Under the pieces are notes generated by a model. That model saw nothing but the letters and a program-made list of their open reading frames with translations, did not search any database and was not told the origin of the DNA. Shown piece by piece: positions 14,027-60,170 of a stretch of DNA of 64,000 nucleotides. Each line of letters starts with the position of its first letter. Position 1 is the first letter of the stretch. The translations under genes were made by a program, and so were the position numbers. Source of the DNA: Candidatus Poribacteria bacterium (GTDB lineage: Bacteria; Poribacteria; WGA-4E; PCPOR2b); NCBI GenBank assembly GCA_965218095.1, contig OZ244587.1:3680001-3744000 (forward strand), given 5' to 3'.

Positions 14027-14200
14027 ATGTGTGCTATCACTAAATGCGTGAGAAAATCCGTTCCATTTGGCGTATCGAGAAGACGACCCGGGATTTGAGT
14101 TCAAAGGTCAAGAGTTCAATGAACCCATGAACTTCTGAACTTTTACGAGGTGAATTTTCCAGTTCCGATGCGGGTTCTTTGGGAATGTGATAGTACACAT
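14027..14200. mobile_element. MITE-like element with GTGCTATCAC ends containing GAGTTCA-type repeats
   Basis: atgtgtgctatcac ... gtgatagtacacat (13/14 IR); internal gagttcaaaggtcaagagttcaa...tgaacttctgaact. Confidence 0.65.
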
Positions 14201-34402: not shown

Positions 34403-36031
34403 ATGGCATTTCCATCACACGGCATTACCCATCGTCCAACCGTGACTGGCACGCGCGGCATGGTTTCCAGTGCACACCCTCTCGCAAGTTTGGCGGGTGC
34501 GCGCATCTTACTTCAGGGCGGCAGCGCTTTTGATGCGGTGGTTGCTGTCGCGTCCACCCTCAACGTTGCCGAACCGTATATGTCAGGCATCGCGGGCTGC
34601 GGTTACATGTTGATTTATAACGCAAAAGAAGAGGCGATCCACGTCCTCGACTACATGGGGACAAGTCCATACCAGGCGACGCTCGACGCTTTTTCAGAGC
34701 CGGGGTCAAGTGGGGTCGGCATCCGATCAGGCATGGTACCCGGCGCTTGCGGCGGTTGGATGGCGCTCCTCGACCGATATGGGAGCATGGATCGCGCGGA
34801 TATTTTTACGCCCGCAATCGAACTTGCGGAGAATGGCTACGCGGTAACAGCTAAAAACGCTCAGTTCATGGAAGGTGCGGCGTCCCGCTTCTCGCCAACG
34901 GGGGCGAAGATCATCATGTCCCGCGGACGAACGCCGCGCCCGGGCGAAATCTTAGTTCAGAAAGAACTTGCCCAGACCTTCCGAAAAGTGGTTGAAGGCG
35001 GCGCGGAGGTCTTTTATCGCGGTGAAATCGCGCAGGAGGTAGATCGGTTTTTCCACGAAAACGACGGCTTAATCACGGCGAAAGACCTTGAGGATTTTCA
35101 GGTGGAATGGCACACGCCTATCTCGACGACCTTCAAGGGGTATGAGATCTTCTGTCCGCCGCCGCCGTGTTCAGGATTTCAGTATCTAGAGACATTCAAT
35201 ATCTTAGAAAATGATCCCCTCGGCGATATCGGGCATAACTCGGCGCAATATCTCCACCTGCTGATCGAAGCGATTAAACTTGCAAGTGCAGACCGTGCGG
35301 AGTATACATGCGCATCAAATCCGCCAATCACCGGACTGCTCTCCAAAGGCTACGCCGCCGCCCAACGCAAACGAATCGGCTACTGTGCGGCGGTGGGCGG
35401 CGGGGAGCGTTACACGAAAGATAAGTTGCTTGGCGAGGTGCTCCCGGGCGATCCAAGCGAATGGATCAACGAATGCACAACTCACTTCGATGTCGTTGAC
35501 GGTGAGGGCAACGCTGTTGCGGTAACACAGAGTCTCGGATCGGGATTTGGTTCTGGGGTAGCTCTCGGCGAGACCGGGATGTTCCTCAATAACTTCATGA
35601 ACTGGTTTGATCTCTTGCCAGAAAGCCCAAACGTGATTGCTCCGCACAAAAAGATCGAGATGTGCATGTCCCCCTGCCAGGTTTGGAAAGATGGCAATCT
35701 ATTCGCGGTGATCGGGACGCCGGGAAGTCACGGCATTTTGCAAACAACCGCGCAGATGGTTTTGAACCTCATCGAGCACGGCATGAATATCCAGGCTGCG
35801 ATTGAGGCGCCGCGTGTTCGAGTTGACCGTCCCGGACCCGACGTTAGCATGGAAGGACGCATTCCCGCCGAGGTTAGGAACGAGCTTACTGCGCGGGGTC
35901 ACGATGTCCATGTAATGCCCGACTGGACGGCTGGGGTGGGGGGCGGTCAAGGCATTGCCGTCGATCAAGGGGAAGGTTCCCTCATGGGCGGCGCCGATCC
36001 GCGTCGTGACGGATACTCGATCGGCATCTGA
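34403..36031 (+). CDS. ggt: Gamma-glutamyltransferase
   Basis: EPYMSGIAG, TTHFDVVD (Thr nucleophile), GTPG, GGADPRRDG. Confidence 0.93.
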   Translation: MAFPSHGITHRPTVTGTRGMVSSAHPLASLAGARILLQGGSAFDAVVAVASTLNVAEPYMSGIAGCGYMLIYNAKEEAIHVLDYMGTSPYQATLDAFSEPGSSGVGIRSGMVPGACGGWMALLDRYGSMDRADIFTPAIELAENGYAVTAKNAQFMEGAASRFSPTGAKIIMSRGRTPRPGEILVQKELAQTFRKVVEGGAEVFYRGEIAQEVDRFFHENDGLITAKDLEDFQVEWHTPISTTFKGYEIFCPPPPCSGFQYLETFNILENDPLGDIGHNSAQYLHLLIEAIKLASADRAEYTCASNPPITGLLSKGYAAAQRKRIGYCAAVGGGERYTKDKLLGEVLPGDPSEWINECTTHFDVVDGEGNAVAVTQSLGSGFGSGVALGETGMFLNNFMNWFDLLPESPNVIAPHKKIEMCMSPCQVWKDGNLFAVIGTPGSHGILQTTAQMVLNLIEHGMNIQAAIEAPRVRVDRPGPDVSMEGRIPAEVRNELTARGHDVHVMPDWTAGVGGGQGIAVDQGEGSLMGGADPRRDGYSIGI

Positions 36032-36067
36032 ATCCGGGGCTTCGCAATGGAGATGAGTTCAGGAATT

Positions 36068-36796
36068 GTGCGCCACGCAACGTAGGAATGCCAGTTGAAC
36101 TGGCTAGGACTACGGGGATGTCTTATACGTACTTGACTTAGGTATGTCCGGGTTAGGAAACGAAGAGCTGAAACACCGAAAGGCGGTGCCAAACATAGCA
36201 TATCGAGAAAAGGTGATTGAGGCGAAAATCGTTCAACGCTAGACGATCATCAACGTAAGATGGTCATGGTTAAGGCTTGATTACTTAAATCCTAGTCCTC
36301 AAGGCGGTAGAACTCACGGTAGCGTGGGAACGGTTGAAACGCTATCCCAGAAAATGATGAGGGATTGAACCCCTCTCTTATCACTCCGCTTTTCTGGCTT
36401 GCCCGTGATGAGTGGGATAAAAGGGACGAACGAGAAACCTAACCCCATCAGTTTTTTTTGAATCAACGAAAGCGTGGGATTGCCTAAGTTGGTTTTTTTT
36501 AGACTGATATGGTAACAGAGGCGTCGTGGCACCCAAAGTTTGGTCTGTAATGGACAAAGCAGTTGGTTTAATCCAACCTTTCCTGAAGGAATAAACCCAA
36601 GATAACGCGGGCGAACCCCCTCAGGAGAAGGGGGAAGGACGCTAGTCCAAACAAGGTAAAATAAGTCGGCGATGAACTGCCGAGCAGTTCGCTTGAGCCC
36701 AAAAGAGCCACTTTGTTTCGGAGTGAGAGCCATGTGCTCAGAAATGTAGCTCGCACGGTTCGGTGGGGAGGCAACGGTACCCCTCATCACCTCCAT
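36068..36796 (+). ncRNA. ORF-less group II intron
   Basis: 5' GTGCG; domain V GAGCCATGTGCTCAGAAATGTAGCTCGCACGGTTC (36727-36761); domain VI ending near ...CCAT; short domain IV without an RT ORF; EBS2/IBS2 complementarity. Confidence 0.88.
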
Positions 36797-36932
36797 TCAT
36801 AATCATAATTATGAGTGGAGTTATAAGGGATCACGTGCTTTACCCAATCATTGGTTCACTGCACTTCCGAACTCCTGAACTCGTAAACCCTCTTCGCAGA
36901 TTGGGAGGATAGGGCCGCACGGAGATACTCCG

Positions 36933-37445
36933 ATGAACAAGACGATAATTGGTGTCATGGGTGGCGGACAAGCCAGTGAACAGGATATGGAGGTCGCTTA
37001 TCGATTGGGCGGTCTCATTGCAAAGGAAGGTTGGGTGCTCTTAAATGGTGGGCGTCAGGCAGGCATCATGGAAGCATCGGCAAAAGGCGCTAAAGATCAG
37101 GGTGGATTGACGGTTGGCATTTTGCCTGATAAAAATCCCGGCAGCGCTTCACGGTATATCGACATTCAAATTCTCACGGGCATGGGCGATGCGAGAAACT
37201 GTATCAATGTTCTGTCCAGCGACGTCGTAATCGCTTGTCCTGGGAAAGCAGGAACGCTTTCAGAGATTGCCCTGGCATTGAGGAGCCGTCGGAAGGTGAT
37301 TCTGCTGAATTTTGATGTCGGTAAGGCATTCGATACATATCTGAAAGAAAGCCTGCTTTTCAAGGTCAAGAGCCCTGAAGAGGCAATAGCTAAAGTCAAA
37401 CAAGTGCTGCGATCCGAGGTCAACACGACGCTCCGAAATTCTTGA
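36933..37445 (+). CDS. LOG/TIGR00725 family protein
   Basis: NGG..GIMEASAKGA, TGMGDARN, GTLSEIALA. Confidence 0.88.
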   Translation: MNKTIIGVMGGGQASEQDMEVAYRLGGLIAKEGWVLLNGGRQAGIMEASAKGAKDQGGLTVGILPDKNPGSASRYIDIQILTGMGDARNCINVLSSDVVIACPGKAGTLSEIALALRSRRKVILLNFDVGKAFDTYLKESLLFKVKSPEEAIAKVKQVLRSEVNTTLRNS

Positions 37446-37451
37446 GTGTCT

Positions 37452-37512
37452 GTTACGCATCACGTTTTACGCAATACGCAATACGCATTACGTTGTGCGT
37501 TTTACGCATCAT
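37452..37512. repeat. Heptameric short tandem repeat tract (TTACGCA/TCACGTT family)
   Basis: ttacgca tcacgtt ttacgca atacgca atacgca ttacgtt; related tracts near 899, 6959, 24389, 25661, 33871, 44493, 49233. Confidence 0.75.
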
Positions 37513-49221: not shown

Positions 49222-49312
49222 CCAGCATACGATAAAACGTGATACGTGATACGTGAATGAACCCTTGAACTCCCCGGCGGATCGGGGGCTATGAACTCTT
49301 GAACCCATTTTC

Positions 49313-59868: not shown

Positions 59869-60170
59869 GTATGCCGCGCAAGCGGTGAGTAGAAGCACCA
59901 GTATAACGGGTCAGGATTGTTAGAATATCCTGTATGCACCTGTGTTAAGCTTATAGCGATAGATTGAGAGTCCGAAAGGACAAGCTGAACTTAGCAGTGC
60001 GTCATGCAAGGTGATCAGCGTAAAACGGTGAGCACGGGTGGATTTCCACAAGCCCAAGTCCTAACGGATTCAGTCAAGTCGGTAGCGTATGGATCCTCCT
60101 GGAATCGGACCAGAAGTGAGGTGATAGCTCACTTCTGGCTTATGGCACGCAACACCAGAGAGTACATTTT
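59869..60170 (+). ncRNA. Group II intron 5' remnant (domain I only)
   Basis: GTATG start; cc.agtcct...cggtagcgt...ccagaa...ttctggctt landmarks collinear with the intron at 36068; no domain V found. Confidence 0.7.

Follow-up and report, generated by a model that had tools for sequence, protein, structure and literature searches.

A probably stranded and inactive group II intron without an ORF, putatively of the LtrA-like (IIA) lineage, within an octamer repeat of a Candidatus Poribacteria genome

Results

The DNA analyzed here, referred to as the window, is a stretch of 64,000 nt spanning positions 3,680,001-3,744,000 (forward strand) of contig OZ244587.1 in the Candidatus Poribacteria bacterium assembly GCA_965218095.1. 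The genome (G000) is a single contig of 6.35 Mb with an estimated completeness of 93.9%; coordinates refer to the window unless they are preceded by G000. A gamma-glutamyltranspeptidase gene (ggt, 34403-36031, + strand; PF01019, E 1.2e-129) lies upstream of the element under study, and a gene of the SLOG cluster 4 family (36933-37445, + strand; PF18306, E 9.4e-54) lies downstream. Between them, a group II intron devoid of an open-reading frame (ORF) occupies positions 36068-36848 of the + strand, in the same orientation as both neighboring genes. The preliminary description of this DNA had recognized an ORF-less group II intron 36 nt past the ggt stop codon, as is borne out here, and had put its length at about 730 nt, which the present boundaries correct to 781 nt.

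Identification of the intron relies on its Rfam match, its ends, an alignment of relatives and a consensus fold. The cmscan search with group II models proposed in the preliminary description returned a match to RF00029 (group II domains V/VI) at 36725-36848 (+ strand) that covers the full model and scores 42.3 bits against a gathering score of 40. This is the sole above-threshold Rfam match in the 64-kb window and the lowest-scoring of the 23 above-threshold RF00029 matches in the genome; a permissive Rfam scan of 35950-37000 (E up to 10, including models of domains I-IV) otherwise gave two chance-level matches only. The intron begins with the canonical 5' pentamer at 36068 and ends at 36848, with a bulged branch-site A at 36842, six bases before the intron end. 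In the cmscan alignment, domain V (36727-36761) keeps the catalytic triad and the GNRA loop, and carries an A.C mismatch (36732/36756) and one extra bulged base relative to its relatives; domain VI (36764-36846) contains a long distal hairpin. The + strand within the intron holds no ORF beyond frames of 32 and 49 aa, and no Pfam family matches a 160-aa frame on the - strand. Chance similarity was rejected as an explanation on the grounds of the over-threshold RF00029 match, the 5' pentamer and a fold backed by covariation: positions 36068-36848 are a genuine group II intron.

A BLAST comparison with 41 related genomes yielded some match in nine, the window's own genome included. An alignable ORF-less intron, 66% identical over positions 48-717, is present in G038, a genome of another family in the same order, and two alignable ORF-less introns are present in G006. 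The relative in G001 carries an insert of about 2 kb in domain IV that constitutes a 612-aa ORF, and its RNA is alignable with that of the window intron. The encoded protein scores 285.7 bits on a group II RT/maturase model and matches LtrA of Lactococcus (5g2x) over its full length (residues 25-594, E 2.3e-137), with TeI4h and class C proteins matching far worse. Because this nearest ORF-bearing relative encodes an LtrA-like protein, the window intron, itself ORF-less and classified by way of the G001 protein, would belong to the mitochondrial-like lineage, structural class IIA.

Further relatives were collected through a search for a pattern of two conserved blocks, which identified six loci in species genomes (four of them Candidatus Poribacteria) and 21 in metagenomes. 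Seven of these 27 loci were taken to be ORF-less because domain V follows only 260-290 nt past the pattern. Locus L051 (a Xenorhabdus record) and a third G006 locus (L054) were left out, their available DNA containing no domain V/VI match. The alignment comprises eight ORF-less members, namely the window copy and seven relatives (including G038, m056, m067 and m069), and its RNAalifold consensus fold contains 199 pairs, 116 of which show at least one compensatory double change. In the window copy, 166 of the 199 consensus pairs (~83%) are standard. Domain VI is extended throughout the lineage, most markedly in the window copy and m056, and the relatives found elsewhere are inserted at unrelated sites, outside octamer repeats of the kind described below.

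The same alignment clarifies the origin of domain IV, which the preliminary description had rightly seen as cut down to a short hairpin. In the window copy this remnant (36672-36690, + strand) consists of a relic start codon (36672-36674) and a hairpin (36674-36690). Members m067 and m069 retain a ribosome-binding site, a start codon and the first ORF codons as in G001, and the hairpin just past the relic start codon is found in all eight members, with covarying pairs (alignment columns 783-801). Judged from this comparison, the ORF is lost by internal deletion and domain IV is a relic of the ORF start. PMC2882425 describes DIVa as the key region bound by the intron-encoded protein in IIA introns, so the DIVa-like hairpin kept in domain IV is read as a putative retained protein-binding site.

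Against this conserved framework, the window copy appears eroded. It has the highest number of non-canonical consensus pairs among the eight members (24 of 199, with nine more gapped), as compared with 21 in m056, 16 in G038 and four to eight in the other five. A.C or C.A combinations, as left by single transitions without compensation, account for ten of the 24 broken pairs, and one of the ten falls in domain V. The RF00029 score, lowest among the above-threshold matches of the genome, points the same way. Part of the excess of broken pairs may stem from the alignment or from lineage-specific structure, given that five closer relatives dominate the alignment and that the window copy and G038 are outliers to them. 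Private substitutions are also most numerous in the window copy (56, versus four to 34 in the other members), which being a phylogenetic outlier makes them a weak measure of decay. On the other side, the catalytic core is not obviously destroyed, with the domain V triad, the GNRA loop, the branch-site A, the 5' end and some 83% of the consensus pairs all kept.

Remnants of the same LtrA-like lineage also occur elsewhere in the genome. A second fragment lies in the window itself at approximately 59870-60150 (G000 3739873-3740149); only domain I is left of it, its 5' end is degenerate, and domain V/VI does not follow. Additional relics were noted at G000 1766218-1767773, 5249210-5249721 and 1738878-1739153 (- strand), and none of these fragments sits in an octamer repeat.

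Recognition of the insertion site by the intron RNA was analyzed by locating the exon-binding sequences (EBS) in the alignment and scoring them against the intron-binding sequences (IBS) of the flanking exons. EBS2 (36310-36316) falls in a domain I internal loop that the consensus fold leaves unpaired, and pairs at seven of seven positions with IBS2, exon positions -14 to -8 (36054-36060). It stands at alignment offset 10, where two relatives pair with their own exons at seven and six of seven positions. Next to the splice junction, the relatives use a 7-nt stretch, delta plus EBS1, that pairs with the last six bases of the 5' exon and the first base of the 3' exon; this pairing with their own exons is complete in three of the seven relatives, reaches six of seven in three and five of seven in one, and the stretch begins at offset 12 in four, 13 in two and 8 in one. 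The homologous stretch of the window copy (delta, 36367; EBS1, 36368-36373), located at offset 12 in the EBS1 hairpin of domain I, pairs with its own flank at five of seven positions. These are delta with the first 3'-exon base (delta prime, 36849), as in the relatives, and four of the six EBS1 positions with IBS1 (36062-36067, exon -6 to -1); the two misses, at exon positions -3 and -4, are C.A mismatches. The same RNA stretch pairs at all seven positions with the consensus of two adjacent repeat units.

Sliding-window scoring of EBS/IBS pairs with wobble allowed has a high background, non-cognate comparisons averaging 5.2 of 7 and reaching a maximum of 7, so that the common alignment offsets, rather than the scores alone, carry the argument. 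On this basis the elements of IIA-type recognition (EBS2-IBS2, EBS1-IBS1 and a delta directly 5' of EBS1) are all found. The preliminary description had named GAACTCA at 36310-36316 as EBS2, with a perfect match to 36054-36060, and the loop at 36365-36373 as that of EBS1, with a flank at 36062-36067 that is only partly complementary. Each of these assignments holds: the former occupies an offset homologous to that of the relatives, the latter is the homologous EBS1 hairpin, and the alignment and consensus fold leave both elements where they had been placed, a full structure model that moved them having been named as a possible refutation.

The intron interrupts a palindromic repeat element (36055-36882) whose flanking arms (36055-36067 and 36870-36882) form a 13-nt inverted repeat, 92% complementary, with the 5' arm ending exactly at the splice site. 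Removal of the intron restores a site with three octamer units in one direction followed by about four in the other, at 8-nt spacing, the further units of the element lying between 36849 and 36890. IBS2 falls in the first unit. IBS1 lies within a degenerate second unit, which is split by the intron and departs from the unit consensus at precisely the two mismatched positions. The insertion point lies within the palindrome, where its 5' arm ends, and a terminator scan of the + strand beside the insertion found no terminator-like site. The kinship with attC- or terminator-targeting classes that the preliminary description had evoked does not apply, given the probable LtrA-like/IIA lineage and a site read by EBS2, EBS1 and delta. 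An intron of class C or of another attC- or terminator-targeting kind was accordingly rejected, on the complete EBS2-IBS2 pairing, the lineage and the insertion within a palindrome.

Counts of the octamer unit establish that the family is real and clade-specific. Tandem unit pairs number 140 in the genome, as against about three expected by our arithmetic for random sequence of genome size, and three-unit arrays number 36, as against none for a reversed control pattern. Arrays are present in 18 of the 41 related genomes (G000, all 16 sampled genomes of one genus, and G001) and absent from the other 23, which include G038 and G006, the hosts of the closest relatives of the intron. The same units occur near 14097 and at 49261-49307, as stated in the preliminary description, which had assigned the flanks to a dispersed repeat family. 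For the 14-position target read from the intron RNA, the genome contains one perfect site, 22 sites with one mismatch and 82 with two, where chance would give about 0.05, 2 and 39 by our arithmetic, and the listed sites with zero or one mismatch lie nearly all within octamer arrays. Because the target is enriched and its sites lie nearly all in octamer arrays, the recognition sequences do read a dispersed repeat, and base-pairing logic thus supports the notion that the intron is aimed at this family. Many arrays are immediately preceded by a conserved stretch of some 25 nt (window ~14060-14150 and at least eight other G000 sites) and may thus be components of a longer repetitive unit, for instance a MITE, a small RNA gene or a terminator module.

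The genome contains a single copy of the window intron, and the 23 near-cognate sites with zero or one mismatch are empty. At E 1e-20 or better, the other 28 family genomes contain no close copy, and among 176 genomes of the phylum only the 66% identical G038 intron was retrieved at E 1e-15 or better. These 28 genomes also lack a match to the downstream SLOG protein (E 1e-30 or better) and so provide no uninterrupted spacer for comparison. The tabulation of all genomic copies against EBS1 and EBS2 that the preliminary description had suggested thus found no second copy to tabulate.

A cognate protein gene was sought likewise, the window having already been described as lacking a reverse transcriptase (RT) gene. 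The absence extends to the whole genome as far as a cognate gene is concerned: a search with the G001 protein recovered only one RT locus, at 41% identity, and a TIGR04416 profile search found no further group II RT in the genome. This sole group II RT (G000 598.7-600.5 kb) is split across two frames; its C-terminal part is TeI4h-like (6me0, E 2.5e-57, versus E 7.5e-12 for LtrA), and its N-terminal part matches TeI4h and LtrA about equally. The cognate RT-encoding intron whose search had been advised is consequently not found in this genome, where the frameshifted TeI4h-like gene is the only group II RT. G038 and G006 are also without a full-length LtrA-like gene. The related genome G017 has four full-length LtrA-like genes, together with five examined ORF-less copies of about 805 nt that have common short flanks; no empty target site for these copies was found there with up to two mismatches. 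Among the five copies (L033, L039, L043, L046 and L048), the common sequence extends over about 14 nt on the 5' side and at least 16 nt on the 3' side.

The 23 above-threshold group II domain V/VI matches of the genome contrast with its one group II RT gene. Most of these matches represent another ORF-less family of about 720-800 nt (for example G000 2598356-2599120, 267583-268385 and 4703363-4704109), with some longer or composite copies, and remnants of an ORF similar to the sole RT occur at G000 1599059-1599547 and 403210-403299. Among introns of both lineages (the main G000 family; L049, L053, L067 and L069), many lie immediately downstream of a strong ribosome-binding site and a start codon with a few further codons, an arrangement that resembles the homing of Thermosynechococcus introns into the ORF start of sibling introns (twintrons) reported in PMC2882425. 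Metagenome copy L056 is inserted within domain I of a sibling intron. At G000 4703363-4704109 and 3601485-3602927, open frames of 292 and 356 aa cross the ligated exon junction of two main-family introns on the strand opposite the intron, and at G000 267583-268385 one same-strand frame of 150 aa crosses the exon junction.

Contigs from four sponge metatranscriptome runs were compared with positions 35500-37500. Some RNA-library contigs are identical to segments of the intron, which they cover about as deeply as the neighboring genes are covered, and the intron stretch was found in sponge metatranscriptome and DNA runs alike. One contig bridges the 5' exon-intron junction, and positions 36840-36906 are uncovered. 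The exon-exon joint was absent among the contigs of the RNA runs, which drop rare forms and cannot show absence. The region may be transcribed, DNA carry-over being possible. A short contig holding domain V/VI of a different, related intron, with loose ends at window positions 36752 and 36784, is covered at depths of 83 and 109 in two of these four runs, far above the value of about 3 at the intron locus.

Discussion

We consider it probable that the element is a stranded and presumably inactive ORF-less derivative of the LtrA-like/IIA lineage, lodged inside an octamer repeat. An intron of this lineage would have lost its RT/maturase ORF, leaving the relic start codon and the DIVa-like hairpin in domain IV, and would have entered the locus by reverse splicing into DNA. 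Choice of the site would have relied on two adjacent repeat units to which EBS2, EBS1 and delta could pair, with the protein supplied in trans by an ORF-bearing relative, and the intron would have been tolerated because no gene is interrupted. What is left would now be a relic with neither a cognate protein gene nor a second copy. With two IBS1 pairs out of six gone as well, and transitions left uncompensated in many helices, it is probably immobile and at best a poor splicer. A helper gene may exist in other strains or on unassembled DNA, the latter being conceivable because the genome is estimated to be 93.9% complete.

The preliminary description had gone further, proposing a non-autonomous retroelement that exploits intergenic repeats as many safe landing sites. 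The aim at repeats is supported, in that the RNA reads the consensus of the two-unit repeat. The use of many such sites is not, in light of the single genomic copy, the 23 empty near-cognate sites, relatives inserted at unrelated sites, the lack of a helper gene and the erosion of the copy. A version of this proposal in which the element is active, and a helper in trans, encoded by another strain, on a plasmid or on unassembled DNA, mobilizes it into octamer repeats as harmless landing sites, would account for EBS2, EBS1 and delta matching a repeat with 23 sites at zero or one mismatch, for the covarying DIVa-like hairpin, the expected protein-binding site, and for the presence of the core motifs. 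The four full-length LtrA-like genes and five copies with common flanks in G017 constitute a workable system of this type in a related genome, and the confinement of the repeat to the clade holding the window genome would fit retargeting to a local repeat. We nevertheless regard present activity as unlikely: there is one copy, with the other near-cognate sites unoccupied, no LtrA-like gene in the genome and no close copy among the 176 genomes of the phylum; the intron mismatches its own IBS1 at two positions and has the most broken pairs of the eight members, the domain V mismatch included; and the other relics of the LtrA-like lineage in this genome lie outside the repeat.

Immobility and splicing need not go together, and a resident intron might still be spliced from the ggt 3' region, by itself, with a host factor or, if the frameshift is an assembly error, with the chloroplast-like RT. 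We hold this to be doubtful, if a little less so than present mobility. In vivo, a IIA intron as a rule depends on the maturase it encodes itself, and maturases tend to be specific to one lineage; this counts against such splicing, as do the loss of two central IBS1-EBS1 pairs and the lack of selection for splicing at an intergenic site. The core elements are in place, the EBS2 pairing is perfect and delta pairs with delta prime; furthermore, the 23 above-threshold domain V/VI matches alongside one RT raise the question of a shared splicing factor. The RNA libraries can be read both ways, with contigs over intron segments at a depth like that of the neighboring genes and no ligated-exon joint in four runs, as judged from contigs that drop rare forms. 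The remaining alternative, that a single insertion fell within a repeat by coincidence and that EBS1 fits the consensus by chance, seems very improbable. In its favor, beyond the five pairs formed with its own flank, the consensus adds only positions -3 and -4, for which we estimate a chance of about 1 in 8 to 1 in 16, the sliding-score background is high (non-cognate mean 5.2 of 7), and the relatives lie outside such repeats. Yet the 14-position target is enriched about tenfold or more at zero or one mismatch, at sites within the repeat family, and the repeat unit never varies at position -3, where it has the very base that EBS1 expects, which points to exon decay rather than chance.

Placed beside the other introns of the genome, the stranded relic that we favor at this locus also admits a broader and more speculative scenario, to which we give little weight as a whole. 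An ORF-less LtrA-like branch would persist across Poribacteria families as a SINE-like parasite, with selection acting on the DIVa-like hairpin and, in the clade that has the octamer repeat, with EBS2, EBS1 and delta retuned to two neighboring units of it; in this genome, which has no intact group II RT, either an unrecognized factor, of the host or free-standing, would splice the 23 cores, or loss of the drivers would have driven the whole intron population extinct. The locus alone is ordinary. The wider pattern, with 23 cores and one broken RT here and working sets in a related genus, may deserve a survey.

Comparison with known group II introns

The closest documented parallel is provided by the ORF-less introns of Thermosynechococcus. 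Mohr, Ghanem and Lambowitz (2010; PMC2882425) describe 17 such introns that derive from one deletion and keep ORF remnants, are mobilized by driver proteins of sibling introns, and include families residing within an insertion element or where the ORF of another intron begins, as well as copies with poor IBS matches in intergenic DNA. As far as that account of TeI3 of T. elongatus extends, the window intron resembles it in the deletion of the ORF within domain IV with retention of ORF-end remnants and the DIVa region, in its putative reliance on a protein in trans, in having repeated DNA as a home, as some of those families do, and in being an intergenic copy with a poor IBS match. Both the internal ORF deletion and a retained, putatively protein-binding part of domain IV, which characterize TeI3-like elements, are found here. 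A same-lineage helper gene is missing from the genome, where the frameshifted TeI4h-like RT at 41% identity is the only one, and so are further copies, the count being one in this genome, none in the 28 family genomes and one distant relative in the 176 genomes of the phylum. T. elongatus, by that account, combines 17 ORF-less copies with intact driver genes, unlike the window genome with its one copy and no cognate driver. TeI3 and TeI4 are moreover chloroplast-like/IIB, and the insertion-element target of T. elongatus differs from a short octamer repeat array.

The lineage itself is probably that of Ll.LtrB of Lactococcus lactis, whose LtrA protein (5g2x) is matched over its full length by the protein of the nearest ORF-bearing relative. 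Both introns read their site by EBS2, EBS1 and an adjacent delta and have a hairpin at the ORF start in domain IV. Unlike Ll.LtrB, the window intron has no ORF and a much extended domain VI, and resides in a sponge symbiont.

Residence in repeated or structured DNA has precedents in other lineages. RmInt1 is inserted in ISRm2011-2, and class C introns are found at terminators or attC sites, recognizing a hairpin and a very short IBS1 without an EBS2. The window intron differs from class C in using full IIA-type pairing and in sitting within the repeat, where the 5' arm ends, rather than past a terminator. A table in PMC1525189 associates two of the nine group II introns of Pseudomonas putida KT2440 with REP elements, and the window intron shares with these an insertion in dispersed, non-coding, hairpin-forming repeats that would do little harm.

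ORF-less introns are treated as a routine category in PMC8919778, and a literature search judged by titles and abstract openings found no publication linking Poribacteria with group II introns. The element is of a known and documented kind, found here in a lineage (putatively IIA), a phylum and a type of repeat that differ from those of the Thermosynechococcus and Pseudomonas introns. It extends the set of repeat-reading ORF-less group II introns to an LtrA-like (IIA) case and to the Poribacteria, a little-studied group of sponge symbionts, and it illustrates how such an element would look once its helper is gone.
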